In this document: piece after piece, positions 1 through 32,545 of the stretch
Layout: the number at the start of each line of letters is the position of its first letter
Numbering within the stretch: position 1 is the first letter of the stretch
Origin: Candidatus Nomurabacteria bacterium
GTDB taxonomy: Bacteria; Patescibacteriota; Minisyncoccia; Phycocordibacterales; UBA9973
DNA: 42,583 nt
Direction: 5' to 3'
Assembly (NCBI GenBank): GCA_052034745.1
Contig: JBPOIF010000030.1
Span: 1-42,583 of the forward strand
Notes under the pieces: generated by a model
The model's input: the letters and a program-made list of their open reading frames with translations, nothing else
Databases searched by the model: none
Told to the model about the DNA's origin: nothing
Translations under genes and position numbers: made by a program

Positions 1-1359
1 AAAAAGATTCTTGTAGAACACTCAAGCCCAAACTTGTTCAAACCATTTCATATAGGACACCTGATGAACAACACTATTGGTGAAGCGCTCTATCGTCTCG
101 CCAAGAGTTCTGGTGCGCAGGCGACCCCTATTTCTTTTCCATCTGACATCTCACTCGGTGTAGCAAAAGCGATATATATTCTTTTGGAAAAATTTGGAGA
201 AGATTTTGCACCTACCGATGTGTCAGTGCTTGGGGGCGCGTATGTAGAAGGGGTAAGAAAATATCAAGAAGCAGAAGAAGAGCAACCATGCGGAAGTATG
301 GTGTATCGAGTGAAAGAAATCGCTGACAATTTATACGCACAAAAAGATTCTCCAGAATGGCGACTGTTTGAGAAATGTAAAGTGTTCAATATCAACTATT
401 TTGAACAAGTAGTAAAAAATCTTGGTTCGCAGTTTGATAGTTATATTTATGAGAGTGAAGCAGGAGTAGAAGGAAAGAAGATAGTGTTAGAAAATACTCC
501 AAACGTATTCACTGAAAGTGAAGGAGCGGTTGTGTATATCCCAGAAGAGGGTAGTAAGCTCCACACCGCTGTCTTTATCAATAGCCAAGGCAATCCTACA
601 TATGAAGCAAAAGATATCGGCCTTCTTGATTTGAAGTTCTCTCGTTATCAACCAGATATTTCTATTACAGTCACTGACAATCAACAGGCTTCACACTTCC
701 AAGTAGTAGTAGATGCGGCTGGAAAAATAAATCCCGCATGGCAAAACAATAGTGTGCACCGAAGTCACGGTCGTATGAGTTTCAAGGGGGCCAAGATGTC
801 TTCTCGTTTGGGGAACGTTCCACTCGTTGAAGACATTCTCGCTACGATTGTAGAAGAAGTGAAAGTAAAAAACCCTGATGCAACTGATGAAGTAGCAAAA
901 CAGGTTGCTATCGCTGCGATTAAATTTGCCATTTTGCGTACACAGGCTGGCAAGGATATTAACTTTGATCCTGACACCTCACTTTCTTTTGAGGGCGATA
1001 GTGGACCATATCTGCAATACACCGCAGTGCGAGCAGGGGCACTGCTTGAGAAAGGGAGCGCCTTGGGTATTACTCCCAATATAGATACTCCTGTTGCAGG
1101 CACCGAGACCCTTGAACGGTTGGTTGCACGATTTCTAGAAGTAGCAGGGGAAGCGCAAGAGTCATGGGCACCGCACTCTGTGGTCTCATACCTCCTCGAG
1201 CTCTCACAAGCATTTAACTCTTGGTATGGACAAGGCAAGATTGTAGATGCGGAAGACGTGTCAGGTACAGCCTACCGTCTCTCGGTAGTTGCAGCCGTTC
1301 GTCAGACTATCATAAACGGCCTTTGGGTCCTCGGTATCGAAACTCCAGAGAAGATGTAA
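1..1359 (+). CDS. argS: Arginine--tRNA ligase (ArgRS), 5' end cut by window edge
   Basis: Frame 1 is open from nt 1 (KKILVEHSSPNLFKPFHIGH). It has SSPN plus a class I HIGH motif, the KMSSRLGN variant of KMSKS, a DALR-type anticodon-binding region (GDSGPYLQYTAVRA) and a typical ArgRS C-terminus ending PEKM. Confidence 0.9.
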   Translation, partial: KKILVEHSSPNLFKPFHIGHLMNNTIGEALYRLAKSSGAQATPISFPSDISLGVAKAIYILLEKFGEDFAPTDVSVLGGAYVEGVRKYQEAEEEQPCGSMVYRVKEIADNLYAQKDSPEWRLFEKCKVFNINYFEQVVKNLGSQFDSYIYESEAGVEGKKIVLENTPNVFTESEGAVVYIPEEGSKLHTAVFINSQGNPTYEAKDIGLLDLKFSRYQPDISITVTDNQQASHFQVVVDAAGKINPAWQNNSVHRSHGRMSFKGAKMSSRLGNVPLVEDILATIVEEVKVKNPDATDEVAKQVAIAAIKFAILRTQAGKDINFDPDTSLSFEGDSGPYLQYTAVRAGALLEKGSALGITPNIDTPVAGTETLERLVARFLEVAGEAQESWAPHSVVSYLLELSQAFNSWYGQGKIVDAEDVSGTAYRLSVVAAVRQTIINGLWVLGIETPEKM

Positions 1360-1393
1360 GGGGACACTTATCCTGAGCCTGCCGAAGGTCAGT

Positions 1394-1436
1394 TTGACTA
1401 TAATAGTTTTTCTTGTAGTATCAAGAAAAACTATTA
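1394..1436 (+). promoter_or_regulatory. Promoter-like element with a perfect 15-bp-arm palindrome (copy 1 of 2)
   Basis: TTGACT (1394-1399) is followed 15 nt later by TAGTAT (1415-1420). TAGTAT is the loop of the palindrome TAATAGTTTTTCTTG-TAGTAT-CAAGAAAAACTATTA (1401-1436). The 26-nt core AGTTTTTCTTGTAGTATCAAGAAAAA recurs identically at 1993-2018. Confidence 0.45.
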
Positions 1437-1440
1437 GTAA

Positions 1441-1923
1441 ATGAAAACATTAAAACAGGCGTTTCTTGTTCTTGTGAAAAAGTACAAGCCAAGAATTTCG
1501 GGGCGATTTATTTTTGGGTTTAATCTGCTCGATATAGATGCTCGGGTAATCCACACCAAAGAATGTTCCCTTTCAGTTTTTTTCTGCGAACTTTTTCTTC
1601 GTTCGGGAAACTATCCTGAAAACAGAGCATCAATTGTCATTTTCCGTGGCATTATTCCCAGCGGGTCAATTCTGAAGGATCCTGTTTTGGAAATAGAAGA
1701 TGTTCTCTGCTATGTGTACAAAAGTATGGATAATGAAAGTACGATCGATTGGTGCTCAAAGTCAGAGATACTCACTTTTTCTTTAAAAGATACTCCAACA
1801 AACCCCCGGGGCAGCCTCTCACAAAGAGAGGAGATCATCGTTTCCAGGATCATTGGGAAGCTCCAAAAACAGCTTTCAAATGAAAGGAAAGGAATAATGC
1901 ATTTCTTTAAGAGATTATTTTAA
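1441..1923 (+). CDS. Hypothetical protein (160 aa), no recognisable domain
   Basis: Only long ORF in this visibly AT-richer stretch. It is bracketed by its own promoter-like palindrome and an intrinsic terminator. I recognise no motif. Confidence 0.55.
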   Translation: MKTLKQAFLVLVKKYKPRISGRFIFGFNLLDIDARVIHTKECSLSVFFCELFLRSGNYPENRASIVIFRGIIPSGSILKDPVLEIEDVLCYVYKSMDNESTIDWCSKSEILTFSLKDTPTNPRGSLSQREEIIVSRIIGKLQKQLSNERKGIMHFFKRLF

Positions 1924-1929
1924 AGTTTT

Positions 1930-1957
1930 AAAAGCCGCAGCGTTGCGGCTTTTTTTT
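1930..1957 (+). terminator. Rho-independent terminator (copy 1 of near-identical pair)
   Basis: AAAAGCCGCAGCGTTGCGGCTTTTTTTT: a GC stem (GCCGCA/TGCGGC) followed by a T8 run, 7 nt after the stop codon. Confidence 0.8.
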
Positions 1958-1981
1958 CGAGATTCATCATATTAGATATGG

Positions 1982-2018
1982 TTGACTTACACAGTTTTTC
2001 TTGTAGTATCAAGAAAAA
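1982..2018 (+). promoter_or_regulatory. Promoter-like element with palindrome (copy 2 of 2)
   Basis: TTGACT (1982-1987) is followed 15 nt later by TAGTAT (2003-2008), inside TTTTTCTTG-TAGTAT-CAAGAAAAA. The 26-nt core is identical to 1405-1430. Confidence 0.45.
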
Positions 2019-2026
2019 AGTAAATC

Positions 2027-2575
2027 ATGATCTCTTTAAAAGAATGGCAAGATAATCCTCATTTGGGTTTGCATTATTATGCGCACTGGGATGAACAAAT
2101 GTTCAAAGCTTTGGAAAATGCCAAAAATCAACCAGGGCTTTTAGTAAAAATGAACGAGTCGCTGAATGTGGGTAAACGCTTATTAAAAAAATTACCCAGA
2201 AAGCTCGGTATTGTTTGTGGGCCTATTTCTACAGGTAAAAAAACAGTGCAAGAGAATTTAAAGGTTTTTGAGCTAACAGTTTTGAAAGTTTCAAATGAAA
2301 TGCCCATCTTCAACCAGATGCCGTTTGAACCAGTTTTTGAAACTGCCCACAGTTTAGCAATGGAAGACAAAGATCTTTGCCCATCGGGTAAAAGCTCAGA
2401 GTTTTTTATTAAATATTTCTATGAAGAGATATTTCTTTCAAACAAAGAATGGAACCCCCATTTTATTTATGGGTGGGAACATTCTGTCGGAGCGATAATG
2501 GAGCACGATATTTTTATTCAGCTGGGATTAGGAAAAGATATCGTTTATTTGTCGGAAGATTTTGTAACACCTTAA
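2027..2575 (+). CDS. DUF4406 / nucleoside 2-deoxyribosyltransferase-like protein with N-terminal extension
   Basis: IVCGPISTG (compare GPMTG of DUF4406) and C-terminal YGWEHSVGAIMEHDIFIQLGLGKDIVYL (compare GWE-S-GA--E---A--LG) fit the DUF4406 pattern. About 60 aa at the N-terminus are unassigned. Recognised by eye only. Confidence 0.5.
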   Translation: MISLKEWQDNPHLGLHYYAHWDEQMFKALENAKNQPGLLVKMNESLNVGKRLLKKLPRKLGIVCGPISTGKKTVQENLKVFELTVLKVSNEMPIFNQMPFEPVFETAHSLAMEDKDLCPSGKSSEFFIKYFYEEIFLSNKEWNPHFIYGWEHSVGAIMEHDIFIQLGLGKDIVYLSEDFVTP

Positions 2576-2576
2576 C

Positions 2577-2603
2577 AAAAGCCGCAACGTTGCGGCTTTT
2601 TTT
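2577..2603 (+). terminator. Rho-independent terminator (copy 2 of near-identical pair)
   Basis: AAAAGCCGCAACGTTGCGGCTTTTTTT; differs from the 1930-1957 copy by a single loop base. Confidence 0.8.
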
Positions 2604-2626
2604 GTTTGAGAGTAGGATAGAGTTCT

Positions 2627-3229
2627 ATGACACATCCTAAAAAAGAGCGATCATTTGTTATTATTAAACCAGACGGGGTGCAGCGTTCGTTGGTTGGCGA
2701 TATTATCTCTCGTTTTGAAAAAACGGGCCTTAAATTTATTGCCATGAAAATGATGCTTCCCACCAAAGAGCACTTATTTAAGCATTACAACAAAGATGAT
2801 GTTTGGTATGAAAGTAAAGGGAAGGTGACACTTGATGCAATTATCGCAAGAGGGGAAACTCCAACAAAAACTGCAACCGAATATGGTAAAGGCATTATTG
2901 AACAACTTGCAAATTTTATGTCAGCAAGTCCTGTTATCGCTATGGTTTTAGAGGGGAATAAGGCAGTTTCTGTTGTAAAGAAGATCGTGGGAGGGACTGA
3001 ACCAGCGACATCTGATGTCGGTACTATTCGAGGGGACTACACAATTGATTCATATAGTTTGGCAAATTTTGACAGTCGAGCAGTGCGTAATCTCATTCAT
3101 TGTTCTGACTCACCAGAAGAAGCAGTAAGGGAAATTTCACTTTGGTTTAATCCAAATGAGTTGATAGGCTATCGTCATATCAATGAAGGAATGCTTTACG
3201 ATGTAAACCTAGACGGTATTCTAGAATAG
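2627..3229 (+). CDS. ndk: Nucleoside diphosphate kinase (long form, 200 aa)
   Basis: ERSFVIIKPDGVQRSLVGDIISRFEKTGLKFIAMK, TIRGDY and NLIHCSDSPEEA (catalytic His present; Cys replaces the usual Gly of HGSDS). Confidence 0.92.
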   Translation: MTHPKKERSFVIIKPDGVQRSLVGDIISRFEKTGLKFIAMKMMLPTKEHLFKHYNKDDVWYESKGKVTLDAIIARGETPTKTATEYGKGIIEQLANFMSASPVIAMVLEGNKAVSVVKKIVGGTEPATSDVGTIRGDYTIDSYSLANFDSRAVRNLIHCSDSPEEAVREISLWFNPNELIGYRHINEGMLYDVNLDGILE

Positions 3230-3462
3230 GTAATCCTTATAGGCTCCTTCGACATTACATTTTGTCTCTGTCTATCTTGTTTCTCGGAACAGAGAACGTA
3301 TACTGAATATACGGCTATTTTAAAATAGTACTTAGAACGTAAGTTATCAGGGGCGCTGCGTGGTATCTGTATTGCCGAATTTTTTATGAGGCATTGCTGG
3401 TACCCAGGCATCCCACTTAGCATCTGCTAAGGATACTATTTTATAAATAGCCGTAATAAAAA

Positions 3463-3490
3463 ACTCTGTGTAAGCAGGGTTTTTTATTTT
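3463..3490 (+). terminator. Putative intrinsic terminator closing the hairpin-rich ndk-downstream spacer
   Basis: ACTCTG-TGTAAG-CAGGGT stem (one G-U pair) followed by TTTTTATTTTT. Confidence 0.45.
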
Positions 3491-3510
3491 TATGGCATAC
3501 TAGTGAGACT

Positions 3511-3909
3511 ATGCGCCGTCTTTTTCTCTTGGTAACTCTTGTTTCAATCCTAATTTTGGTTATTTTGCATTACGGGGCACTCATCTATGACCTTTATGGT
3601 ACGTTTTTCTGGTTCGATATGCTCACCCATACGCTCGGAGGATTTGTAGTGGTGTTCGTTGGAATTGTTTTTCTGGGTTCTCGGTCATCTCGACTCCTCA
3701 CACGGAGAAATCTTATTATCCTTGTTATAGGTATTGGTGTACTGTGGGAACTATACGAGTACTTAGTACAAACAATGATACCCGCAACCCCTTTTGTTAC
3801 TTTTGTTGATTCTTTGAGTGATATTCTCTTCGATGTTGTTGGGGGAGTTATCGGAATATGCTTTGTTCATTGGTTAAAAAAGAGGTACACTACAAGAGAT
3901 GGCAACTGA
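3511..3909 (+). CDS. Small integral membrane protein (about 4 TM), function unknown
   Basis: Hydrophobic segments carry conserved-looking polar residues (FDMLTHTLGG, WELYEY, DSLSDILFDVVGG). Its stop overlaps the next gene's start by 11 nt. Confidence 0.7.
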   Translation: MRRLFLLVTLVSILILVILHYGALIYDLYGTFFWFDMLTHTLGGFVVVFVGIVFLGSRSSRLLTRRNLIILVIGIGVLWELYEYLVQTMIPATPFVTFVDSLSDILFDVVGGVIGICFVHWLKKRYTTRDGN

Positions 3910-5269
3910 AAAAATTCTGAAACTTACTTTTGCAGGCGGAACCGGGAGTGTGACAGGAGCAAACTTTTTGCTCGAAGGCGAGGGGAAGCGCATCTTGATT
4001 GATTGTGGACTTTCACAGGGGACAAAGCTTGCTGATGATAAGAACTGGGAACCATTTCCCTACGATCCCGCATCGATCGATATACTGTTTATCACGCATG
4101 CACACATCGACCACATCGGTCGTATTCCAAAGCTCGTCTTCGAGGGGTTTAAGGGGGTGATCTATTCAACAACTCCGACAAAGGATATTACGGAGCTCAT
4201 GCTTGATGATACGGCAAATATCCTCTCTCATGGCGACAACGAACAGCTCGGCAAAATGTACAGCCCTGCAGTCCTCGAAAAAGTTTTTAAAAACTGGAAG
4301 ACAGTAGACTATCACGAACCGTTGGTGATCGACCAGTTTTCTTTTCGTTATCTTGATGCGGGGCACATCCTTGGTTCGGGAATGCTCGAGCTTACCTACA
4401 ACAAAAAAAAGATTCTCTTTACGGGAGATCTCGGCAACTCACCGTCACCACTCCTTCCTGACACGGAAGCGATTAAAGACATTGATTATATGCTCATGGA
4501 AAGTGTCTATGGAGATCGCAATCACACCGACCGCAATGAACGTCGCAACAAGCTCGAGGCGACCATTGAGGACAACTTCAAACGTAAGGGGACACTCGTC
4601 ATCCCTACCTTTTCTCTTGAGCGAAGTCAGGAACTCCTCTTTGAGATAGATCAGCTTGTTGAGAACGACCGCGTGCCTCAGATGCCTATCTTTTTTGATT
4701 CTCCGCTTGGAATCCGTCTTACCAAAGTCTATCGACAGTATTCGAAGTACTACAACCAATTTGCACAGCAACTGCTCAAAAACGGTGGAGACATCTTTAG
4801 TTTTCCAGGACTCAAGTCGACACTCCTCACTGAGGAATCAAAAGAGATTGTCCGTGCCCCAAATCCAAAGATAGTGATTGCCGGAAGTGGTATGTCAAAC
4901 GGGGGACGCATCCTCCATCACGAAGCGCATTATCTTCCTGATCCAAACAACACGATTCTCCTTACTGGATATCAATCCCAAGGTACGCTCGGTCGCCTCA
5001 TTCAAGAGGGGCAAAAAGAAGTACGTATCAATGGGCAAGAGATCCCTGTTCGTGCCAACGTCGTTTTTATCGACGGGTATTCAGGACATAAGGACTCGGA
5101 TCACTTGATTGATTTTGTTGCGCAAGTTTCTGACAACATCAAGCAAGTCTTTGTTGCAATGGGAGAGCCAAAGTCTTCACTCTTTTTGGCACAACGTCTT
5201 CGGGACTATCTCGGTGTCTATGCTTCAGCTCCACAAGAAGGGGATGTGATAGAATTGGATTGTAATTAA
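3899..5269 (+). CDS. MBL-fold beta-CASP ribonuclease (CPSF73/RNase J-like)
   Basis: HAHIDHIG (HxHxDH), DAGHILGS, ESVYGDRNH, a beta-CASP middle region and C-terminal GYSGHKD. Confidence 0.85.
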   Translation: MATEKILKLTFAGGTGSVTGANFLLEGEGKRILIDCGLSQGTKLADDKNWEPFPYDPASIDILFITHAHIDHIGRIPKLVFEGFKGVIYSTTPTKDITELMLDDTANILSHGDNEQLGKMYSPAVLEKVFKNWKTVDYHEPLVIDQFSFRYLDAGHILGSGMLELTYNKKKILFTGDLGNSPSPLLPDTEAIKDIDYMLMESVYGDRNHTDRNERRNKLEATIEDNFKRKGTLVIPTFSLERSQELLFEIDQLVENDRVPQMPIFFDSPLGIRLTKVYRQYSKYYNQFAQQLLKNGGDIFSFPGLKSTLLTEESKEIVRAPNPKIVIAGSGMSNGGRILHHEAHYLPDPNNTILLTGYQSQGTLGRLIQEGQKEVRINGQEIPVRANVVFIDGYSGHKDSDHLIDFVAQVSDNIKQVFVAMGEPKSSLFLAQRLRDYLGVYASAPQEGDVIELDCN

Positions 5270-5303
5270 ACAAATTTATTAGTACTCACTTTACGACATA
5301 TAC

Positions 5304-5939
5304 ATGCCTGATACGATTGCGCAAAAAAATACACCCATCTGTTATAACGGACCACTTGAAAATGGTGACAGACACGGCCACATCAAAATAAAGGTGGGCA
5401 TCTCTGGTGCTGCAGAGACAGGACACTGTGGGCTCGACGCACTCGATAAGGCAAAGGCACTCGGTGCTGAAGTGATTCGCCAGGGAGGTATCCTCGTTAC
5501 CGGAGCAACCACAGGGTTTCCTTTTTGGGCATCCATCGGTGCAAAAGAAGAGCACGGAGTTGTGATAGGGCTTTCTCCTGCATCGAGTCCAAAGGAACAC
5601 GTTGAGACATATCGACTCCCGCTCGATTACACTGACCTTATCATCTATACAGGGTTTGGTTTTCCTGGACGAGACCTTCTCTTTACGCGCAGTTGCGACG
5701 CACTCATCATCGGATGTGGTCGCATCGGAACGATTCATGAATTTACCATTGCGTATGAAGACGGCAAACCGATCGGTATCCTCGAAGGGTCATGGACGAT
5801 GGGGGATCAGATTAGAGATATGATTGCAAAAGGCAATCGTCCCGCTGACAAGATCATCTACGACAAGGATCCTCAGAAGCTCGTCGAGCGCGTGATGGCG
5901 ATGGTAGTCGCTGATCAGAAAGCGCTGGGCGCACACTAG
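5304..5939 (+). CDS. TIGR00725-family / SLOG (LOG-DprA-like Rossmann) protein
   Basis: VGISGAAETG, GGILVTGATTG, ALIIGCGRIGTIHEF: the pattern of the TIGR00725 LOG-like family. Confidence 0.7.
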   Translation: MPDTIAQKNTPICYNGPLENGDRHGHIKIKVGISGAAETGHCGLDALDKAKALGAEVIRQGGILVTGATTGFPFWASIGAKEEHGVVIGLSPASSPKEHVETYRLPLDYTDLIIYTGFGFPGRDLLFTRSCDALIIGCGRIGTIHEFTIAYEDGKPIGILEGSWTMGDQIRDMIAKGNRPADKIIYDKDPQKLVERVMAMVVADQKALGAH

Positions 5940-5974
5940 TGCCCCTTTGAGGGAATTGTGTTAGGATAGTTTCA

Positions 5975-6150
5975 TATGCGATGAAGGGGCGATCACCCTG
6001 GAGCTTTGGGGAGAAATTGGTAACAAGAGTAAATCCCAACGGGTAAGCCCGTTAGCGCTGTAATGAGTATAAGTAAGGTGGTACCACGAGAAAAACTCGT
6101 CCTTGCACTATGACTATATGTCGTAATGCGCGGACGAGTTTTATTTTTTC
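5975..6150 (+). promoter_or_regulatory. T-box riboswitch leader (Ile) with intrinsic terminator
   Basis: T-box sequence AAGGTGGTACCACGAG lies at 6075-6090. By-eye antiterminator: A1 helix AAGG(6075-78)/CCTT(6101-04), 7-nt bulge TGGTACC, A2 helix ACGAG(6086-90)/CTCGT(6096-6100). Competing terminator: AACTCGTCC(6094-6102)/GGACGAGTT(6132-40) followed by TTTTATTTTTT. A GCGATGA K-turn-like start sits at 5978-5984, and ATC-A (5992-5995) lies in a short apical loop. Confidence 0.85.
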
Positions 6151-6152
6151 AT

Positions 6153-9100
6153 ATGAATAACAATCAACAACAATCAAAATCAAATGCAGCACTCCGTCCC
6201 GCCGACGCAAAGTCTGCTATGGCGGGCAGGGAAGAGGCGGTACTTCAGTTTTGGAAAGAGCAAGACATTTTCAAAAAATCGGTTGAGAAAAGTAAGGAAG
6301 GGAAGGAATTCGTCTTTTATGAAGGCCCTCCAACTGCAAATGCAAAGCCAGCACTCCATCATCTTGAAGCCCGCGCATTCAAGGATGTGATTCCTCGCTA
6401 CAAAACAATGCAGGGGTACCATGTCGCACGTCGCGCAGGGTGGGATACTCACGGGCTTCCTGTTGAACTGCAGATAGAAAAAGCGCTCGGACTTCAGTCA
6501 AAGAAAGACATCGAAAACTACGGAGTCATGGAGTTCAACAAGGCATGTAAGGAAAGTGTCTTTACGTATATCAAAGACTGGGAAGTATTTACTGACCGTA
6601 TGGGGTACTGGGTCGACAAAAAGAGCGCGTACTATACCTTCAATGCTCCGTATATGGAGTCACTCTGGAACATCGTCGCGCAGGTAGAGAAAAAAGGATT
6701 GCTTTACAAAGACTACAAAGTTGTCCCATGGTGCCCTCGTTGTGGCACGACTCTTTCCTCGCATGAGCTTGCACAGGGATATCAAGACGTGAAAGATTTG
6801 TCAGTGTACGGGAAGTTTAAGATTGTTGGATTTGAAAATGCATATTTTCTCGCATGGACAACAACCCCATGGACACTCCCAGGAAATGTTGCGCTCGCAG
6901 TTGGTGCAACTATTGAGTACGTTGAAGCAAAAGTAGGAGAAGAAATTTTTGTCCTTGCAAAAGAACGACTCAGCATCCTTCCTGAAGGGTACGAAATAAT
7001 CGCAGAGCATAGTGGTTCTGAAATGGTGGGGATGAAGTACGAACCACTCTATCCATATCTGAAGACAGAAGCAGAGAAAAAACAGATCGATACAACAACT
7101 GCATTCCAAGTTTATGCTGCGGAATTTGTCACGACGACTGATGGTACTGGTATCGTCCACATCGCACCGATGTATGGAGCAGATGACTTTGAACTTGGTA
7201 CAAAGATGAGTCTCCCAAAGTTTCATACTGTCGATGAGCAAGGACGCTTTATCAAGAGTACTGAGTTTCTCGAGGGGCGTTTTGTAAAAGATGAAGAGGT
7301 TGCAGTTGATATCATCAAAGACCTTGCGGGGCGAGGTCAGCTTTTCAAAAAAGAAAAGTATGAGCACACCTACCCACACTGTTGGCGTTGCAAGACACCG
7401 CTTCTCTATTACGCGCGTGATAGTTGGTATATCGCAATGTCTAAACTTCGCGACGAACTTTTGAGCGCAAACAATGATATCAATTGGGAACCGCTCCATA
7501 TCAAAGAAGGTCGTTTTGGTGAATGGCTCCGTGATATCAAAGACTGGGCCATCTCTCGCGAGCGATACTGGGGCACACCACTTCCTATCTGGACAAATGT
7601 AAAAGGAGAGCGTCTCGTGGTTGATTCGGTAGAGACTATCAAGCAACATAGTCTTTCTTCAGGAAATCGATATTTTGCTATTCGTCATGGACAGGCAAAG
7701 CACAATCTCACTGATACGTGGAGTTGCACTCCTGGGGTAAACGATGAGCTTACCGAAGAGGGAGCTGCACAGATCCGTGCGGCGGTCACTCCGCTTGTCG
7801 GCTCGATTGATCGCATCATTGCATCACCATTTGTTCGAGGGCAAAAGTCAGCACAGGTTGCAGCCGAGGTGCTTGGTATTGACCCTGCTTCTATTATTAC
7901 AGACCCGAGAGTTGGGGAGTGGAATGTCGGTGCTGAGTTCAATGGCAAACCAATGGATGACTACTTTGTGCTTCGCAACAAAAGTGATGATCGGTATCAG
8001 TTCAAAACTTCTGATGGTGAATCATATGCAGATGTCTTTACTCGAAGCGGGGCATTTCTCTACGAACTCGAATCGACCTACAAAGGCGAGCGTATCTTGA
8101 TTGTGACGCATGGAGGATCTGCTCGAGCGATGGAGCTTGTTGCAAAAGGTTTTGCGTACGATACGCTCTTTGAGACTACTCGAGAGTATCGCAATTTTGA
8201 CAACGCAGAAATTCGCGAGATCAACTTTGTGCCGCTACCACACAATGATCAGTTTGAGCTTGATCTTCATAGACCATATATCGACGCCGTGACACTTTAT
8301 AAAGACGGGGAGGCATTTACGCGAGTCAAAGAGGTGGTGGACGTGTGGTTTGATAGTGGTGCGATGCCGTTTGCGCAAGACCATTATCCGTTTGAAAACA
8401 AATCATGGATTGAGACCACAGGATATCCTGCAGACTTTATCTCTGAAGCGATTGATCAGACACGTGGGTGGTTCTACACGCTCCTTGCGATCGGTGTGCT
8501 TATGGGACGAGGTACTCCCTACAAAAATGTCATCTGCCTTGGACACTTGCTCGATAAGGATGGCAAAAAGATGAGTAAGTCCATCGGCAATATCGTTGAA
8601 CCATTTGAGCAAATGGACAAATTTGGAGTGGATGCGGTGCGATTTTGGATGTATAGCGTGAACGCTCCAGGGGAGAGCAAGAACTACGACGAAAAGTCTG
8701 TGGCAGAGATAAACAACAAAGTGTTCAACCTCTTTGGAAACGTCCTCTCGTTTTATGAGCTCTACCGGGACAAAAAACTAGAAGCGAGAAGCCAGTCGCT
8801 AGAAGCTGATAATGTGCTTGATCAGTGGATCATGGCGCGACTCGCACAAATTACACAGGAGGTCACAAGCGCACTTGATGTCTACGATATTTTCCGTCCT
8901 ACACGAGTTCTTCGAGATTTTATCGATGATTTGTCGACGTGGTATTTGCGTCGTTCACGAGAGCGTCTCAAGGATGGGGATGCTGATGCAAAACGTACGC
9001 TCTATACAGTACTCAAAACAACTGCACAACTTATCGCACCGTTCGCACCGTTTTTTGCTGAGCATGTATGGCAGACACTCAAGACTGATGCCGATGAAGA

Positions 9101-9614
9101 GAGTGTGCATTTGAGCGTGTGGCCTGTTGAAAAACATAGTCTTCTCTTTGTTGAACTTTCTCAGGATATGCAAAAGGTTCGAGACATCTGCACTCAGGGA
9201 AATGCGCTTCGCAAGAAGTTAAATATCCCCGTGCGCCAACCGCTTCAAAAGCTGGTAGTAACCAATGATTTGGCGGTAGATGCAAAGTATCACCACCTCA
9301 TAAAAGAAGAGCTCAACGTAAAAGAGGTAACAGAAGGAAGTGAAATGTCTCTTGATACAGAAATCACTCCAGAGCTTAAAAAGGAAGGAATCGCACGTGA
9401 GCTTATGCGTATGATTCAAGATGCTCGAAAAGAGCGCGGACTCAAACCAGAAGATCGCATCACTCTTTCTCTTGGGACAAATGCAGAAGGGGAAGCGATA
9501 CTCGCGCAATTTGCCGAAGATATTAAAAAGACTGTGGGAGCAGATTCCCTTGTGTTTGTTGGTGCTTCCGAGGGGAGTACAATAGAAGGTATTCCATTTA
9601 GTATTAAGTTTTAG
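6153..9614 (+). CDS. ileS: Isoleucine--tRNA ligase, type 2 (eukaryote/Thermus-like), with embedded histidine-phosphatase domain
   Basis: YEGPPTANAKPALHH, RRAGWDTHGLPVE, the editing-domain blocks WTTTPWTLPGN and GTGIVHIAPMYGADDF, CxxC pairs (PWCPRCG, PHCWRCK), ISRERYWGTPLPIW, DVWFDSG and KMSKSIGN. Start placed at ATG 6153 because ATG 6126 lies inside the terminator hairpin; this start is uncertain. Confidence 0.95.
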   Translation: MNNNQQQSKSNAALRPADAKSAMAGREEAVLQFWKEQDIFKKSVEKSKEGKEFVFYEGPPTANAKPALHHLEARAFKDVIPRYKTMQGYHVARRAGWDTHGLPVELQIEKALGLQSKKDIENYGVMEFNKACKESVFTYIKDWEVFTDRMGYWVDKKSAYYTFNAPYMESLWNIVAQVEKKGLLYKDYKVVPWCPRCGTTLSSHELAQGYQDVKDLSVYGKFKIVGFENAYFLAWTTTPWTLPGNVALAVGATIEYVEAKVGEEIFVLAKERLSILPEGYEIIAEHSGSEMVGMKYEPLYPYLKTEAEKKQIDTTTAFQVYAAEFVTTTDGTGIVHIAPMYGADDFELGTKMSLPKFHTVDEQGRFIKSTEFLEGRFVKDEEVAVDIIKDLAGRGQLFKKEKYEHTYPHCWRCKTPLLYYARDSWYIAMSKLRDELLSANNDINWEPLHIKEGRFGEWLRDIKDWAISRERYWGTPLPIWTNVKGERLVVDSVETIKQHSLSSGNRYFAIRHGQAKHNLTDTWSCTPGVNDELTEEGAAQIRAAVTPLVGSIDRIIASPFVRGQKSAQVAAEVLGIDPASIITDPRVGEWNVGAEFNGKPMDDYFVLRNKSDDRYQFKTSDGESYADVFTRSGAFLYELESTYKGERILIVTHGGSARAMELVAKGFAYDTLFETTREYRNFDNAEIREINFVPLPHNDQFELDLHRPYIDAVTLYKDGEAFTRVKEVVDVWFDSGAMPFAQDHYPFENKSWIETTGYPADFISEAIDQTRGWFYTLLAIGVLMGRGTPYKNVICLGHLLDKDGKKMSKSIGNIVEPFEQMDKFGVDAVRFWMYSVNAPGESKNYDEKSVAEINNKVFNLFGNVLSFYELYRDKKLEARSQSLEADNVLDQWIMARLAQITQEVTSALDVYDIFRPTRVLRDFIDDLSTWYLRRSRERLKDGDADAKRTLYTVLKTTAQLIAPFAPFFAEHVWQTLKTDADEESVHLSVWPVEKHSLLFVELSQDMQKVRDICTQGNALRKKLNIPVRQPLQKLVVTNDLAVDAKYHHLIKEELNVKEVTEGSEMSLDTEITPELKKEGIARELMRMIQDARKERGLKPEDRITLSLGTNAEGEAILAQFAEDIKKTVGADSLVFVGASEGSTIEGIPFSIKF

Positions 9615-9618
9615 ATAT

Positions 9619-10260
9619 ATGCCGAAAAATATAGAAAACATGAACCCGGCTCACGAAGAAGTACATGAGGACGAGGCTCGTATTTATAAAAACGATCCTC
9701 AGCATCGTTTTGTTCCAAGTGAACAAATAAAAGATAACCAAGAGCACGACCCATTTGAAAAAGCCTCTGAAGAAGTAATAGAAGAAAACGAGATAGATCC
9801 AGACCACCGAGATCCAGAAATCGAAGAAGATGAGTGGGAGCGACGAAGAATCGAACAGCTGAGCAATGATATTAAATTTTCTTCATCAGAAGGGGTTGCT
9901 TCTGTCGGTCCTGATGTAGAGGGGGATATTGCACATGAAATTATTGAAACAACAAATCGAGATATTGAACCAATGATTGTTTCGAGAGGACTTGATTCAA
10001 TGAGTCATGCAAAAATTGCAGGGTGGGAATCAAGACGTCATAGAAAATTAAATAAAGATAAAGGTGCTGGACACGACAACTTCAAGAAACAAAAACGTTT
10101 TGGAGATTTTTTCAAAAACCTTTTTGGTATTACTAGCTCCCGTGAAGAAAACATGCAATCAATCCAAGACAGTATTGACCTTGATGAGGAAAAACCAATG
10201 CTCAACGGTAAATTGATAGACAAGAATTTTCTTGAAAAGGAGGATGATATTGCTGCCTAA
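9619..10260 (+). CDS. Highly acidic, probably disordered hypothetical protein
   Basis: 213-aa ORF starting 5 nt after the ileS stop. It is Glu/Asp-rich and low complexity, with a basic patch (RRHRKLNKDKGAGHDNFKKQKRF). Confidence 0.55.
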   Translation: MPKNIENMNPAHEEVHEDEARIYKNDPQHRFVPSEQIKDNQEHDPFEKASEEVIEENEIDPDHRDPEIEEDEWERRRIEQLSNDIKFSSSEGVASVGPDVEGDIAHEIIETTNRDIEPMIVSRGLDSMSHAKIAGWESRRHRKLNKDKGAGHDNFKKQKRFGDFFKNLFGITSSREENMQSIQDSIDLDEEKPMLNGKLIDKNFLEKEDDIAA

Positions 10261-10287
10261 GGTTTCTTTAGGTTACTAAACCTCTCT

Positions 10288-10863
10288 ATGCACACGATTC
10301 ATCATACACACGCATTTGTGCTTCGTCAGGCAGAAAGCGGAGAGGCGAATCGTCGCGTCTGGCTCTTTACCGAAGAGTTCGGTCTTGTCGTTGCAGTGGT
10401 CCAAGGGGTACGCAAGGTGGGCGCCAAGCTCCAGATGCAACTCGTCGACTACGCGTTTGTGTCTGTTGATCTCGTGCGAGGTAGAGATGTGTGGCGCCTC
10501 GTGAGCATCTCTTCTGCTCATGCGCCTTTGTTGCACGAACCGCGCAAGACACTCGCTCGGTCTTTTGTGCGCAGTCTTGGAGCAGTAGAGCGATTTTGTC
10601 ATGGTGAAGAGGCAAACCCTGCACTTTTTGCACATCTCGTAGCGTGTCAAAACCTTCTCGGAGAGAGTGGTCTCGATGAGCGAGCCTACGATACGGTCTC
10701 TTTGTGGAAGGTAATGACGATTCTCGGGTATGGCTCTGTCACTCCAGAAGTACAGCCATTGTTTGAAGCACCACTTCGCGAAGCGGTGCAGATGCTCACC
10801 GATACTGCTCGCAAACAGCTTGTGCGAGATATCAATGAGGTAATAGAGCATACACATCTGTAG
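10288..10863 (+). CDS. recO: DNA repair protein RecO (short form)
   Basis: N-terminal OB-fold pattern THAFVLRQAESGEANRRVWLFTEEFGLVVAVVQGVRK, and an overall length typical of compact RecO proteins. Confidence 0.65.
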   Translation: MHTIHHTHAFVLRQAESGEANRRVWLFTEEFGLVVAVVQGVRKVGAKLQMQLVDYAFVSVDLVRGRDVWRLVSISSAHAPLLHEPRKTLARSFVRSLGAVERFCHGEEANPALFAHLVACQNLLGESGLDERAYDTVSLWKVMTILGYGSVTPEVQPLFEAPLREAVQMLTDTARKQLVRDINEVIEHTHL

Positions 10864-10887
10864 TTCTACGGTATACTTTATATTGGT

Positions 10888-12774
10888 ATGCCTGAACAAA
10901 TAGACCATATAGAAGAATTGCAAAAACGCCTCTACGCGCGCGATCCTGAAAGTGTCCCAAAACAAAAGTTTGGGATACTTCGTCCGATGAAGCAGACGAT
11001 GGTGTCGACGTGGGGAGAAAAGGACATCCCAAAGGATAAGGGTCCACAAAAAGTCAGCACGACAGGATATAAGCGCTTTTTTATATTTTCTTTTATCTTT
11101 TTCTTGGTTGGGCTTGGTCTCGCCTCTTTTTCTGTTTTTCGTGGAGCGATTACTCTTTCGAGTAAAAATGTCGATCTCACTATTCTCGGCAACTCTTTTG
11201 TCGCAGGAGGGGAGGAGCTGCCTATTCAGGTCGAAATAGCAAACAAAAACTCGAGCGATCTCGTTGATGCAGTACTTACACTTGAGTATCCAAAAGGTGC
11301 GACGGACGAAACAGGGACAGAGATGGCACGACTTGCAGAACCACTCGGTACTATTGCTGCTGGAAAATCTCGAAGCGTTGGGTTCTCTACGGTGCTCTAT
11401 GGAGAACAAGGCCTTTCTCGTACTATTACTGCCACACTCTCGTACCATCTCGCAGGATCAACGGCGACGTTTGAAAAAGCGCAGTCATTCTCGGTGATGA
11501 TTAGTTCGAGTCCTATCACCCTTACGGTTGATGGTCCAACAGTTTCTGCAGCTGAGCAGCCTTTTACGATAACGATTCGAAGTGTATTCAATGGGGATCA
11601 ACCGTTGGTCAATCCGATTGTCCGCGTTGAATACCCGACAGGTTTTACCTTTTTATCTTCGACACCAGGGACTCTCTCTGGCAACAATGTGTGGGAGCTC
11701 GGTACTCTTGAAAAAGGACAAGAATTTGTCATCAGTCTTCGCGGCAAACTTTCTGCAATTGAAGGAGATGAACGTGCGTTTCGTGTCTATCTCGGTACTC
11801 CTGTTTCAGATATCGATACTCGCATTGCTGTCGCATATAACTCAGCGCTTCATTCGCTCCTTATCGAAAAGCCATTTATTGCAGCAGATGTTTCAGTAGA
11901 GGGGCAGTCATCCGATGTTGTTTCTCTGCCGATAGGCTCCTCTATAAGAGGTGCGATCGCGTGGCGCAATATGACAGGAGGCATAGTGACCAATCCAGTT
12001 TTTACACTGCTTCTGTCTGGAGAGGGACTTTCTGGTGCAACTGTTGAGCCGGTCAATGGGTATTATGATGAACTCCTTCGCGCTATCACTTGGACAGCAA
12101 CTTCTGACGAAGATATCGCGACGATCGATCCAGATGAATCAGGGACCCTTAACTTTTCAATCATTCCAGCGAGTCCAACAACAAAAGATGATATCAGGAC
12201 AACGCTTTCGGTACAGGGGACAATCGCAAACCTGCAAAATGAAATCAAGACAATCACAGGACTTGATGAACTGATGGTTCGGTATGCTGCACGTCTTCAG
12301 TTTGCCTCGCAAGCACTTTATTCGATTGGTCCTATCAAAAACAGCGGGCCATTTCCTCCAAAAGCGAACCAAGAGACAAGCTACACACTCACGTGGACGA
12401 TCAAACCGGCAGACAACCCTATCTCGGGTGCTGTTGCGACTGCGACGCTTCCGACAAACGTGACATGGGCCGGTGTTATCGTTCCTCAATCAGAGACGCT
12501 TTTGTACAACCAAGAAACACGCGAGATTCGATGGAATATCGGTTCTCTCCCCAAGGCGACCGCAACCCAGCTTTCAAAATCAGTTTCGTTCCAAATAAAG
12601 GCGCGACCGACACTTTCTGATGTCAGCCAGAGTCTCGATCTCCTATCGGAAACAGTCATTACTGCTCAAGATACCTCGGCAAATGCAGCGCTTCGTGTTA
12701 CTCGACCAGCACTTACGACGAGTCTGGCTACCGACCCTGCCTATAGCCCCGGAGAGGAGAAAGTGATACCATAG
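10888..12774 (+). CDS. Membrane-anchored extracytoplasmic protein with repeated beta-sandwich-like segments
   Basis: About 60 aa of cytoplasmic N-terminus, one TM (FFIFSFIFFLVGLGLASFSVF), then about 540 aa rich in T/S/V/G with recurring L-x-Y-P-x-G-like strands (LTLEYPKGA, VRVEYPTGF). Confidence 0.7.
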   Translation: MPEQIDHIEELQKRLYARDPESVPKQKFGILRPMKQTMVSTWGEKDIPKDKGPQKVSTTGYKRFFIFSFIFFLVGLGLASFSVFRGAITLSSKNVDLTILGNSFVAGGEELPIQVEIANKNSSDLVDAVLTLEYPKGATDETGTEMARLAEPLGTIAAGKSRSVGFSTVLYGEQGLSRTITATLSYHLAGSTATFEKAQSFSVMISSSPITLTVDGPTVSAAEQPFTITIRSVFNGDQPLVNPIVRVEYPTGFTFLSSTPGTLSGNNVWELGTLEKGQEFVISLRGKLSAIEGDERAFRVYLGTPVSDIDTRIAVAYNSALHSLLIEKPFIAADVSVEGQSSDVVSLPIGSSIRGAIAWRNMTGGIVTNPVFTLLLSGEGLSGATVEPVNGYYDELLRAITWTATSDEDIATIDPDESGTLNFSIIPASPTTKDDIRTTLSVQGTIANLQNEIKTITGLDELMVRYAARLQFASQALYSIGPIKNSGPFPPKANQETSYTLTWTIKPADNPISGAVATATLPTNVTWAGVIVPQSETLLYNQETREIRWNIGSLPKATATQLSKSVSFQIKARPTLSDVSQSLDLLSETVITAQDTSANAALRVTRPALTTSLATDPAYSPGEEKVIP

Positions 12775-12785
12775 GGCTTACTTCT

Positions 12786-14123
12786 ATGACCAATACTGCA
12801 TCAATGGAACAACTCGTTAGTCTCTGTAAGCGCCGGGGATTTATCTTTCAAGGGTCCGAAATCTATGGAGGACTCGCAGGGACATTTGACTATGGACCGC
12901 TCGGTGTTGCACTCAAAAACAACATCAAAAACCTCTGGTGGAAACAGTTTGTAGACAATCGTACCGATATGTATGGCGTCGACGCCGCTATCTTGATGAA
13001 TCAGAAAGTATGGCAGGCGAGCGGGCACGTCGGAGGGTTTAGCGATCCTCTCGTTGAATGTCGTGAATGTAAATCACGCTTTCGTGAAGACCAGATCGAT
13101 ACGTCAGAGTGTCCTACTTGTCACAAGAAGGGGACTTTTGGTGAGGCTCGACAGTTCAACATGATGTTCAAGACAACAGTTGGTGCTATTGAAAGCGATG
13201 ACTCTATTTCATACCTTCGTCCTGAGACTGCGCAGGGGATGTTTGTAAACTTCAAAAACATTCTTGATGCGTACCACCCAAAACTTCCGTTTGGTTTGGC
13301 ACAAATCGGAAAAGCATTTCGCAATGAGATTGCTCCTCGTGATTTTATCTTTCGCGTGCGAGAGTTTGAGCAGATGGAGATCGAGTACTTCGTTGATCCT
13401 CGAAATGCAGAAGCGGTGCAGACTATTTTTGAAACGCTCTTTCAAGAGCAGGTGCTGTTTTTGAAAACGATTGGGCTTGATTCAACAAAGGTACACAAGA
13501 TAGAAGTTCCCGCAGAAGACCGAGCACATTATTCAAAGCGAAGTGTTGATACAGAGTATGACTTTCCATTCGGACAAAAAGAACTTCTCGGACTTGCGTA
13601 CCGCACGGATTATGACTTGCAGGCACATGTCGCTTCGAGCGGAGTTGATTTGTCGTATTTTGATGAAGAATCAAAGGAGCGTTTTGTTCCGCACTGCATC
13701 GAGCCAACGTTTGGTGTTGACCGTCTCGTGCTCGCGGTTCTTTCAGATGCCTATCATGAGGATGGTGAAGGGGAGGACGCACGCGTCTTTTTGAAGCTTG
13801 CTCCTGCTGTTGCTCCTATCAAGGCATGTGTATCACCGCTTCTAAAAAATAAACCAGAACTTGTTGCAAAGGCGCAAGAAGTCCATGGACTCTTGAAGGC
13901 CCGCTTTGGTGCTGTTGCCTATGATGACAATGGCAATATCGGTAAGCGCTATCGTCGTCAGGATGAGATAGGGACACCGTTTTGTATTGTGGTGGATTTT
14001 GATACTCTCGGAGAACATGCAGAACTCAAAGACACCGTGACTGTTCGCAATCGTGACACAGGTGCACAAGAGAGAGTAGCGATTGGGAAGCTGGAAGATT
14101 TTATAGCAGAAGCGCTTCGATAG
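12786..14123 (+). CDS. glyQS: Glycine--tRNA ligase (dimeric class II type)
   Basis: RRGFIFQGSEIYGGLAGTFDYGPLG, YLRPETAQG, GKAFRNEIAPRDFIFRVREFEQMEIEYF, EPTFGVDRL and a C-terminal anticodon-binding domain. Confidence 0.93.
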   Translation: MTNTASMEQLVSLCKRRGFIFQGSEIYGGLAGTFDYGPLGVALKNNIKNLWWKQFVDNRTDMYGVDAAILMNQKVWQASGHVGGFSDPLVECRECKSRFREDQIDTSECPTCHKKGTFGEARQFNMMFKTTVGAIESDDSISYLRPETAQGMFVNFKNILDAYHPKLPFGLAQIGKAFRNEIAPRDFIFRVREFEQMEIEYFVDPRNAEAVQTIFETLFQEQVLFLKTIGLDSTKVHKIEVPAEDRAHYSKRSVDTEYDFPFGQKELLGLAYRTDYDLQAHVASSGVDLSYFDEESKERFVPHCIEPTFGVDRLVLAVLSDAYHEDGEGEDARVFLKLAPAVAPIKACVSPLLKNKPELVAKAQEVHGLLKARFGAVAYDDNGNIGKRYRRQDEIGTPFCIVVDFDTLGEHAELKDTVTVRNRDTGAQERVAIGKLEDFIAEALR

Positions 14124-14125
14124 AT

Positions 14126-15409: not shown

Positions 15410-15425
15410 GTCTGTACGAGAGCCC

Positions 15426-16508: not shown

Positions 16509-16513
16509 TCTGT

Positions 16514-29803: not shown

Positions 29804-29810
29804 CACTTGT

Positions 29811-30779: not shown

Positions 30780-30786
30780 TCAAATC

Positions 30787-32540: not shown

Positions 32541-32545
32541 AAATT

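Follow-up and report, generated by a model that had tools for sequence, protein, structure and literature searches.

To our knowledge, the catalytic modules known to be nested within aminoacyl-tRNA synthetases (aaRSs) are editing domains. In the isoleucyl-, valyl- and leucyl-tRNA synthetases (IleRS, ValRS and LeuRS), the CP1 editing domain is a hydrolytic unit nested in the connective polypeptide of the Rossmann fold, and it acts in cis on the synthetase's own product. CP1 editing has been cited as the standard functionally coupled insertion into aaRS hosts (PMC13114784). Here we analyze a stretch of 42,583 nucleotides of DNA from a Candidatus Nomurabacteria bacterium (contig JBPOIF010000030.1; hereafter the window), in which the ileS gene encodes a type-2 IleRS that carries a second kind of nested domain within its catalytic region, a small branch-1 histidine phosphatase. 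The two insertions resemble each other in their placement and differ in fold, in reaction and in distribution: CP1 hydrolyzes the ester bond of mischarged tRNA and is universal in class Ia enzymes, whereas the phosphatase is restricted to particular lineages.

The host protein has its best sequence match in the Protein Data Bank (PDB) in the IleRS2 of Priestia megaterium (PmIleRS2; 8C8V/8C8W; E=5.5e-240 to 8c8w), with which it shares the domain order, the Anticodon_1 and DUF5915 domains, the zinc site of the editing domain, the KMSKS loop and a signature motif of the A/GxHH type. The CxxC...CxxC zinc knuckle of PmIleRS2 is intact and leaves only a few residues between positions 477 and 483, whereas the window protein possesses about 200 extra residues at this site and none of the knuckle cysteines.

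Among the phosphatases, the same fold, size and RHG/N/R/E/H residue set are found in the phosphoserine phosphatase PspA (4IJ5/4IJ6), PhoE (1H2E/1EBB), the α-ribazole phosphatase CobC (6NRU/6E4B), the glucosyl-3-phosphoglycerate phosphatase Rv2419c (GpgP; 4QIH) and HFP of the riboflavin pathway (9MMH), but these enzymes are free-standing and have defined metabolite substrates, while the insert of the window is nested and joined at both ends to a hairpin. A branch-1 phosphatase that sits covalently on a nucleic-acid enzyme is known from the bifunctional RNase H/CobC-type acid phosphatases (Rv2228c type, NF005567), the second-best NCBIfam match of the insert (56 bits against a cutoff of 326). In these proteins the phosphatase is fused end to end with RNase H, whereas that of the window is nested in the synthetase.

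The host synthetase and its nested domain

The ileS gene and the landmarks of its synthetase part are the following, with conservation counted over 121 close relatives and positions in the protein given in amino acids (aa).

6126..9614, forward strand: ileS, type-2 isoleucyl-tRNA synthetase with nested phosphatase, 1162 aa; recognized from the open frame and from Pfam, NCBIfam and PDB matches
6351..6362, forward strand: non-canonical class I signature A-L-H-H, aa 76-79 (P-A-L-H-H, aa 75-79); PALHHL in 119/121
6732..6743, forward strand: zinc site 1, first half (C203-P-R-C206), hinge region of the editing domain; CxxC in 121/121
7380..7391, forward strand: second half of zinc site 1, C419-W-R-C422; PHCWRCK in 121/121
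7590..7619, forward strand: degenerate first knuckle half WTNVKGERLV, aa 489-498; cysteines lost, strands 488-490 and 496-498 in the AF2 model
8280..8324, forward strand: degenerate second knuckle half IDAVTLYKDGEAFTR, aa 719-733; C-x-x-C in relatives, AF2 strands 723-726 and 729-733
8568..8582, forward strand: KMSKS loop, aa 815-819; K/RKMSKS in 121/121

The frame runs through 1162 codons without interruption, and hence without the stop or frameshift whose absence had been stated in a preliminary description of the sequence; the other possible start lies at position 6153 (Met10). Membership in the type-2 IleRSs follows from a score of 872 bits against TIGR00392, the isoleucine--tRNA ligase equivalog of NCBIfam (cutoff 621), from the KMSKS loop, from the C-terminus composed of Anticodon_1 and DUF5915, and from IleRS2 as the best structural match, the AF2 model of the full-length protein (pTM 0.74) reaching a Foldseek TMt of 0.78 to 8c8v. 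In the full protein, Pfam recognizes tRNA-synt_1 (E=5e-115, in two parts), Anticodon_1, DUF5915 and His_Phos_1, and hence both of the profiles anticipated in the preliminary description, tRNA-synt_1 and His_Phos_1. The synthetase strings quoted there (PWCPRCG, PHCWRCK, ISRERYWGTPLPIW, LHRPYID, DVWFDSG and KMSKS) are all present, and zinc site 1 and the KMSKS loop are intact, as it had maintained. The window protein does not reach the models for the acquired mupirocin-resistance synthetases MupA and MupB (NF000257/NF000258; 790-797 bits against 1900) or for the ileS_w_GNAT family (NF040702; 334 bits against 1999), and Pfam finds no GNAT match in it.

The preliminary description had also counted an intact HIGH motif among the features of the enzyme; the motif is ALHH in the window, and likewise in 119/121 close relatives. 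A/GxHH is a published variant of the IleRS2 signature that confers mupirocin hyper-resistance at little cost in activity (Brkic et al. 2023, PMC10485003), and it is tolerated only by IleRS2 (PMC10485003). As ALHH corresponds to this documented variant, the lack of a canonical HxGH motif is no argument against membership in the IleRSs; many of the more distant insert-bearing IleRSs possess a canonical HYGH. In the full-length AF2 model, the pLDDT falls below 50 at residues 59-63, 70-72 and 90-98 (nucleotides ~6300-6420), the other parts of the catalytic core being modeled with confidence. These low values near the signature helix may stem from a shallow alignment of closely related sequences or from a real mobility of the altered motif.

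The phosphatase is nested in a surface β-hairpin, the former Cys4 knuckle, located between the two halves of the Rossmann fold. Insert-less relatives read W-x-C-x-x-C ... C-x-x-C at this site, and the insert falls exactly between the two half-sites. The Cys4 connector of ~60 aa has therefore not been replaced, as was first thought, but split: about 50 aa of the original connector still flank the insert in the form of the two knuckle halves, and approximately 40 of 61 divergent insert-bearing IleRSs retain all four cysteines around it. In the window protein and its close relatives all four are gone (WTNVKGER ... LYKDGE), while the strands of the hairpin remain in the model. The catalytic core of the P. 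megaterium IleRS2 comprises residues 40-168 and 513-632 (PMC10485003). When these residue ranges are compared with the insertion site at 477-483, the insertion appears to lie in the last connective-peptide element and not in the Rossmann core proper. In the full-text literature covered, no account was found of where this second zinc knuckle stands with respect to the acceptor arm of the tRNA.

Conservation of the inserted domain was assessed in three sets of sequences: the 121 close relatives; 61 divergent proteins (60 representatives plus that of the window); and 81 proteins (from 80 species-representative genomes plus the window).

7656..8258, forward strand: inserted block, aa 511-711, an entire small histidine phosphatase followed by a short return linker; delimited by gaps against PmIleRS2 and five insert-less IleRSs of the candidate phyla radiation (CPR)
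7677..8171, forward strand: Pfam His_Phos_1 (PF00300), aa 518-682; E=3.6e-23 in the full protein
7683..7691, forward strand: R520-H521-G522, predicted phosphate-binding Arg and nucleophilic His; R and H in 121/121, 61/61 and 81/81
7836..7838, forward strand: R571, predicted second Arg of the phosphate pocket (S-P-x-x-R); invariant in all three sets
7917..7919, forward strand: E598, predicted general acid (L-x-E-x-x-x-G); 121/121, 58 E plus 3 D of 61, and 80/81
8109..8114, forward strand: H662-G663, predicted distal catalytic His; H invariant in all three sets
8226..8261, forward strand: return linker F-V-P-L-P-H-N-D-Q-F-E-L, aa 701-712; not present in standalone phosphatases

The limits of the insert were placed at aa ~511-711 by alignment with the five insert-less relatives, and the alignment with PmIleRS2 is interrupted between query residues 508 and 709, which face chain residues 477 and 483. 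The interval first proposed, 7668-8234 (aa 515-703), was essentially right, and the phosphatase peptides quoted with it are all present, e.g., RYFAIRHGQAKHN (aa 515-527), LTEEGAAQ, ASPFVRGQKSA, GEWNVG, GESYADV and ILIVTHGGSARA. Standalone neighbor phosphatases (see below) match the insert from end to end. Both junctions (...KQHSLSSGN and ...PHNDQFELDLH) have pLDDT values of 92-97 in the full-length model and carry residues conserved among the close relatives; within the return linker, P705 and H706 are (near-)invariant in these relatives and the pLDDT exceeds 90. Such confidently modeled, conserved junctions suggest that the phosphatase is held in a fixed orientation.

The excised insert scores 88 bits against His_Phos_1 (gathering threshold 21.7; E=8.6e-25), compared with 82.7 bits for the full protein. 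Modeled alone with AF2, it folds confidently (pLDDT 93.2, pTM 0.90), and a PGM-type α/β/α fold is predicted by the model together with Foldseek, which matches it to about 50 solved histidine phosphatases with a probability of 1.00, TM values of 0.71-0.77 and root-mean-square deviations of 2.6-3.1 Å (among them 4ij6, 6s2q, 4qih, 9mmh, 6e4b and 1h2e). The superimposed proteins include PspA, Rv2419c, TIGAR, the histidine phosphatase of the riboflavin pathway (9MMH), CobC and PhoE. Among solved proteins, the profile of the insert finds 4ij5, 1h2e and 6nru, and its identity to solved small branch-1 histidine phosphatases is about 20%. The fold is compact, and no added nucleic-acid-binding element is visible in the model. 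Profile, fold and motif thus agree on the branch-1 histidine phosphatase that had been recognized in the preliminary description.

Its subfamily is less sharply defined. The best NCBIfam matches of the insert are CobC, the RNase H/acid phosphatase and the archaeal cofactor-dependent phosphoglycerate mutase (dPGM), and every curated cutoff is missed: the insert does not reach the dPGM models proper (dPGM_arch, 46 against 225 bits; PRK14120, 17.5 against 366; PRK01295, 27.7 against 316), nor the equivalog scores of CobC (TIGR03162, 65.5 against 162.9) and PspA (NF045917, 31.4 against 350). Structures of canonical dPGMs match it over the N-terminal ~110 residues only. Since no curated subfamily is reached and the dPGM match is confined to the N-terminal half, the domain is best described as a PhoE/PspA/CobC-like phosphatase and not as a demonstrable phosphoglycerate mutase.

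The canonical branch-1 set consists of the nucleophilic His, two Arg residues of the phosphate pocket, an acid and the distal His. In the insert, R571, E598, H662, N527 and E632 align with catalytic positions of 4ij5. Eleven residues are invariant in the 121 close relatives (R520, H521, N527, S567, R571, E598, E632, S633, R640, H662, G663), and five of them (R520, H521, R571, E632, H662) are found in 61/61 of the divergent proteins, although the divergent inserts are only 23-36% identical to that of the window. The same five occur in 81/81 of the species-representative set, an independent data source. At the same time, the insert is the least conserved region of the protein, with a mean top-residue frequency of 0.64 compared with 0.82 for the synthetase core in the close relatives. 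Catalytic residues that stay fixed in a domain whose other positions diverge to 23-36% identity are a signature of selection on catalysis or phosphate binding. From these sequence patterns, we are highly confident that the nested domain is a histidine phosphatase and is catalytically competent rather than decayed, as had been proposed at the outset.

The same pattern bears on the idea that the domain is a purely structural, non-catalytic module that stands in as a scaffold for the lost zinc knuckle. It is true that the lineage of the window has none of the four cysteines left and that the domain packs with confident junctions; yet many relatives have the full Cys4 knuckle in addition to the insert, and invariant catalytic residues in an otherwise drifting domain are at odds with a scaffold. 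We regard this explanation as very improbable.

Distribution of the nested form and the separate phosphatase gene

A search with the full-length protein returned 120 closest relatives with 98% to 61% identity and lengths of 1056-1187 aa, every one of which carries a precomputed PF00300 match. They were drawn from the ENA, NCBI, JGI and Logan assemblies, include a 98%-identical insert-bearing protein from an independent assembly, and are labeled Candidatus Nomurabacteria, Paceibacterota, Minisyncoccia or Patescibacteria group. An exhaustive HMMER search of 1.84 billion representatives, in which the insert was used together with ~45-50 aa of IleRS on each side, yielded at least 166 clusters of 50% identity at E<=1e-30; in nearly all of the best 150 clusters, flank, insert and flank are aligned as one stretch, with identities down to ~32%. 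A scan of one genome per GTDB species with the single segment of the window as query detected 463 loci, and the best 80 of the 463 all span junction, insert and junction. The titles of these loci refer to the Parcubacteria/Patescibacteria group; many metagenome-assembled genomes are titled "uncultured Candidatus Saccharibacteria", which we treated as a generic label.

A word-indexed search with the insert alone listed five short standalone phosphatases and zero fusions. This is a false negative, as hundreds of fusions to IleRS, even the 98%-identical one, escaped it, and a profile search with diverse inserts likewise listed only short proteins. Conclusions on the specificity for IleRS consequently rest on the flank-anchored search, which is itself biased towards IleRS.

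Two trivial explanations can be set aside with near certainty. Misassembly or a chimeric contig is ruled out by the occurrence of the same architecture in independent assemblies and in the best 80 of the 463 loci; the base composition is uniform across both junctions. An intein or mobile insertion is ruled out just as firmly, since the Pfam scan of the full protein finds only synthetase domains and His_Phos_1, without a Hint, intein or endonuclease domain, and so bears out the impression gained at first reading that intein signatures were missing. The survey of relatives that had been recommended thus recovered the insertion in 120/120 closest relatives as well as in those 80 loci, and the rarity that had been presumed gave way to an architecture that is clade-wide in Patescibacteria of the Parcubacteria/Paceibacteria type. 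The preliminary description had named a common, already annotated IleRS subtype as the outcome that would count against it. The architecture is common, but it is not annotated: the source names of the relatives are "isoleucyl-tRNA synthetase" or "class I tRNA ligase family protein", and none mentions a phosphatase.

Distant relatives carry the domain in further arrangements. One representative (P0236) has kept the knuckle and contains two phosphatases, which follow DxWFxSG and KMSKS, respectively; in P0247, one occupies the site used in the window and another lies in the second half of the knuckle; P0252 combines a phosphatase with a P-loop kinase-like AAA_33/AAA_18 domain after DxWFxSG; and P0255 combines phosphatase and GNAT domains. 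From these architectures it appears that the IleRSs of these lineages gather enzymatic domains of the small-molecule type near the active site, the phosphatase being the commonest. NCBIfam already curates one kind of IleRS with an extra enzymatic domain, NF040702 (ileS_w_GNAT), which resembles P0255 in its GNAT domain and differs from the window protein, which lacks one. None of the four proteins belongs to this family (P0255 scores 241 bits against the cutoff of 1999), and no functional literature on it was found. Contigs with members of the P0255 cluster reach 2.1 Mb, which exceeds the size of typical CPR genomes. The pairing of kinase and phosphatase in P0252 is reminiscent of kinase-phosphatase RNA end-healing enzymes; a Pnkp-like pairing of this kind was not found in the window protein, for which Pfam reports no kinase domain, and P0252 is the only distant relative that adds AAA_33/AAA_18.

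The profile of diverse inserts also finds standalone proteins of ~190 aa at ~200 bits, and five of the six best standalone relatives are encoded in an argS-phosphatase-ileS neighborhood. In locus L081, argS, the phosphatase gene and ileS follow each other in this order, with a 1-nt overlap and then a 2-nt gap; the phosphatase gene directly adjoins ileS in L083 and L085, and it lies 0.9-1.7 kb away in L084 and L087. The sixth (L086) is unlinked and resides in an apparently archaeal context. Each of the five linked loci encodes an IleRS without the insert and with an intact Cys4 knuckle. When the standalone proteins are aligned with the insert, the match begins at the second or third residue of the former (NNKYYxMRHGQA corresponds to SGNxYFxxRHG), and their C-terminal ends (AEIRE-I/L-K) match the NAEIREI of the insert; the nested forms add only the linker F-x-P-L-P-H-N. 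All 88 of the 88 loci contain exactly one copy of the phosphatase, either nested or standalone, the two forms being mutually exclusive locally. A few kb upstream of the argS-phosphatase-ileS operon, L081 also contains a reverse transcriptase gene (RVT_1) with a bAvd-type accessory gene (2351-3730), a pairing that suggests a diversity-generating retroelement.

These loci share a common backbone, argS ... ileS - small open reading frame (ORF) - recO - DUF11 protein - class II aaRS, and the window follows it as well. Its two ends are represented there by:

1..1359, forward strand: argS, cut by the start of the window, upstream end of the backbone
10288..10863, forward strand: recO, downstream end of the backbone; RecO_N match

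Of the 80 nested loci, 64 carry argS upstream and 68 carry recO downstream, in each case on the same strand; the recO arrangement also exists in L081, L083 and L084. The spacing between argS and ileS in nested loci is an overlap or at most 150 nt in 12/64 and 151-700 nt in 18/64; most of the remaining pairs are separated by larger gaps that hold other genes, as in the window, and one locus is arranged differently. Between ileS and recO, the window encodes an acidic 213-aa ORF (9619-10260) without a Pfam match; the same slot holds an ORF of 99-291 aa in relatives, and its sequence was matched in only 1/80 loci.

From the end-to-end alignments and the shared neighborhood, we conclude at the level of sequence that the nested domain is the fused form of a separate gene that is flanked by argS and ileS in related genomes. 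A neighbor-joining tree of the IleRS core with the insert masked separates an A/GxHH clade, which includes the window, from a canonical HxGH clade, and both clades hold nested forms as well as insert-less forms with a neighboring phosphatase gene. The presence of both forms in both clades means that the arrangement changed at least twice or that lateral replacement occurred; these neighbor-joining trees have no support values, and neither the direction nor the number of fusions is set by them. Because many insert-bearing proteins retain the Cys4 knuckle, the argument that lost cysteines cannot be regained is of no use for setting the direction either.

Candidate roles at the charging step

We consider it probable that the phosphatase is functionally coupled to the IleRS, and an active phosphatase coupled in this way is, by a modest preference, our best overall interpretation of the data. 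The case for coupling draws on the argS-phosphatase-ileS neighborhoods, the end-to-end match and mutual exclusion of the nested and standalone forms, the further insertion sites and the conserved junctions described above, and on the following consideration: in the operon the two genes are already co-expressed, and nesting a domain in an essential enzyme is risky, yet nesting recurs at several sites and persists across deep divergence, the IleRS cores that carry the nested form being only 34-64% identical.

In the mechanism that we envision, the IleRS would charge tRNA-Ile normally through its A/GxHH variant of the active site, and the nested domain would act as a phosphomonoesterase via a phospho-His521 intermediate. 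Selection would hold the phosphatase physically on the synthetase. If the physical attachment is under selection, the substrate is probably a phosphorylated molecule encountered during charging. Because the substrate of a histidine phosphatase must offer a terminal phosphoryl group, three candidates come into view: a phosphorylated tRNA acceptor end, a nucleotide by-product and a phosphorylated synthetase. We tentatively favor the first of these, at low confidence: an activity fixed to the synthetase would free the acceptor end in cis, exactly where this is needed, of a phosphate or pyrophosphate that prevents aminoacylation. It is conceivable, if rather doubtful, that the domain provides a second in-cis quality-control site that removes a blocking (pyro)phosphate from the acceptor end of tRNA-Ile or from the synthetase before charging. 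Equally speculative is the notion that such a site would represent a previously unknown aaRS "end-clearing" domain class, a former operon partner that was repeatedly recruited into CPR IleRSs.

That such lesions exist is documented: (pyro)phosphorylation of the 3'-CCA end is a described block to aminoacylation that is reversed by hydrolases. The small alarmone hydrolases ATfaRel and MESH1 remove the 3'-pyrophosphate that toxSAS toxins set on tRNA CCA ends. With the nested domain they share a functional analogy only, that of a phosphohydrolase that restores aminoacylation of a tRNA with a phosphorylated acceptor end; they are free-standing proteins with an unrelated HD-domain fold.

Several observations weigh against a role of the phosphatase at the charging step. 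The nearest solved relatives all act on small metabolites, their substrates being phosphoserine, glucosyl-3-phosphoglycerate, α-ribazole phosphate, fructose-2,6-bisphosphate and a riboflavin intermediate, and none of the branch-1 histidine phosphatases known to us has RNA ends as its substrate. The argS-phosphatase-ileS adjacency may in part be inherited, as gene order is generally conserved in small genomes. The domain tree is star-like and without support values, the multi-site cases are single representative metagenomic proteins, and a comparison with the PADLOC library of defense systems gave no match.

The main rival is a metabolic phosphatase or short phosphoglycerate mutase (for phosphoserine, 3-PGA/2,3-BPG or a sugar phosphate) that is merely co-expressed with the IleRS, fused to an essential, constitutive gene in a reduced genome without any mechanistic link to charging. 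The closest relatives in sequence and structure are all small-molecule enzymes, the top NCBIfam matches (CobC, RNase H/acid phosphatase, archaeal dPGM) point in the same direction, the compact domain displays no nucleic-acid-binding element, and synteny can outlast function in small genomes. However, the operon already provides co-expression, so that nesting would bring risk without benefit, and yet it is found at several sites and in tandem and persists across the divergent IleRS cores; the curated metabolic cutoffs are missed over the sequences scored (dPGM_arch, 46-88 against 225 bits; CobC, 65-89 against 163; PspA, 31-80 against 350), and canonical dPGMs match only the N-terminal half. On balance, we judge such a metabolic enzyme to be unlikely, although it is the strongest competitor of a phosphatase coupled to charging.

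A nucleotide by-product might instead be cleared at the synthetase: the domain would take the terminal phosphate off an adenine-nucleotide species that class I synthetases make or bind (PPi, AMP, pAp-like or alarmone-like), which would pull the reaction forward or feed nucleotide salvage. ArgRS and IleRS, whose genes flank the standalone phosphatase, have tRNA and adenine-nucleotide chemistry in common, with ATP, AMP and PPi among the shared reactants, and genes for NDK (2627-3229) and a SLOG-family protein (5304-5939) are located nearby in the window. A role of this kind would, however, serve all twenty synthetases, whereas the association is seen only with IleRS; hydrolysis of AMP would waste adenylate, and hydrolysis of PPi and AMP is atypical for branch-1 histidine phosphatases. 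We therefore assign by-product clearance a low probability. Ap4A, which had been proposed as a substrate in the preliminary description, was rejected: it has no terminal phosphomonoester and is chemically unlikely as a substrate of a phosphomonoesterase.

Still somewhat less probable, in our view, is a protein phosphatase that guards the synthetase by stripping inhibitory phosphorylation, e.g., by HipA-like kinase toxins, from the IleRS or neighboring translation factors. Branch 1 includes the protein or phospho-His phosphatases SixA, Sts-1 and PGAM5, HipA-type kinases target active-site loops of aaRSs, the insertion sites of other relatives flank the KMSKS loop, and there is a weak SixA match (20-43 bits over the sequences scored). 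No kinase toxin was found in the loci examined, though, and the closest structures are metabolite phosphatases and not SixA or Sts-1.

The wider window and the meaning of the architecture

The first part of the window (1-17953) contains four aaRS genes within 18 kb: the truncated argS, ileS, a class II synthetase gene (12786-14123) and metG (16514-17953). They are interleaved with genes for NDK, a beta-CASP RNase and the SLOG-family protein, and with recO and tatD. The ~670 nt between ndk and the beta-CASP RNase gene (3230-3898) contain no ORF of at least 150 aa, no tRNA and no Rfam family at the gathering threshold. Further downstream (29745-38460), genes for a glycosyltransferase, an NAD-dependent epimerase/dehydratase, three SAM-methyltransferases and a polysaccharide deacetylase follow that for an O-antigen-ligase-like membrane protein, and this region looks like a surface-glycan cluster.

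Nested hydrolytic domains in synthetases and histidine phosphatases fused to nucleic-acid enzymes are already known. What appears to be new is the combination of an IleRS with a nested phosphatase, and its history from operon partner to nested domain, for neither of which a description was found in the literature covered. No published account of a nested-phosphatase IleRS was found in the full-text literature searched, which includes only a minority of subscription journals, and to this extent the statement of the preliminary description that no aaRS with an internal histidine phosphatase had been described still stands. The architecture is likewise absent from a 2026 preprint that annotates 96,219 IleRS domain architectures and from a 2026 survey of domain insertions, and no insert-bearing IleRS was found among the solved IleRS structures by Foldseek. 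The co-occurrence of IleRS and His_Phos_1 in Pfam is visible in public databases.

A conserved and apparently active phosphatase within the catalytic region of the synthetase suggests that a step associated with tRNA charging has so far gone undescribed. The architecture is common to hundreds of uncultured species, has a separate-gene counterpart beside ileS, and has apparently been recruited repeatedly. Should the target be the tRNA end or the synthetase itself, the nested domain would provide these bacteria, with their minimal genomes, with a new level of translational maintenance; should it be a metabolite, an enzyme would be hidden in a protein annotated only as IleRS, and would have been missed by metabolic reconstructions of these organisms.

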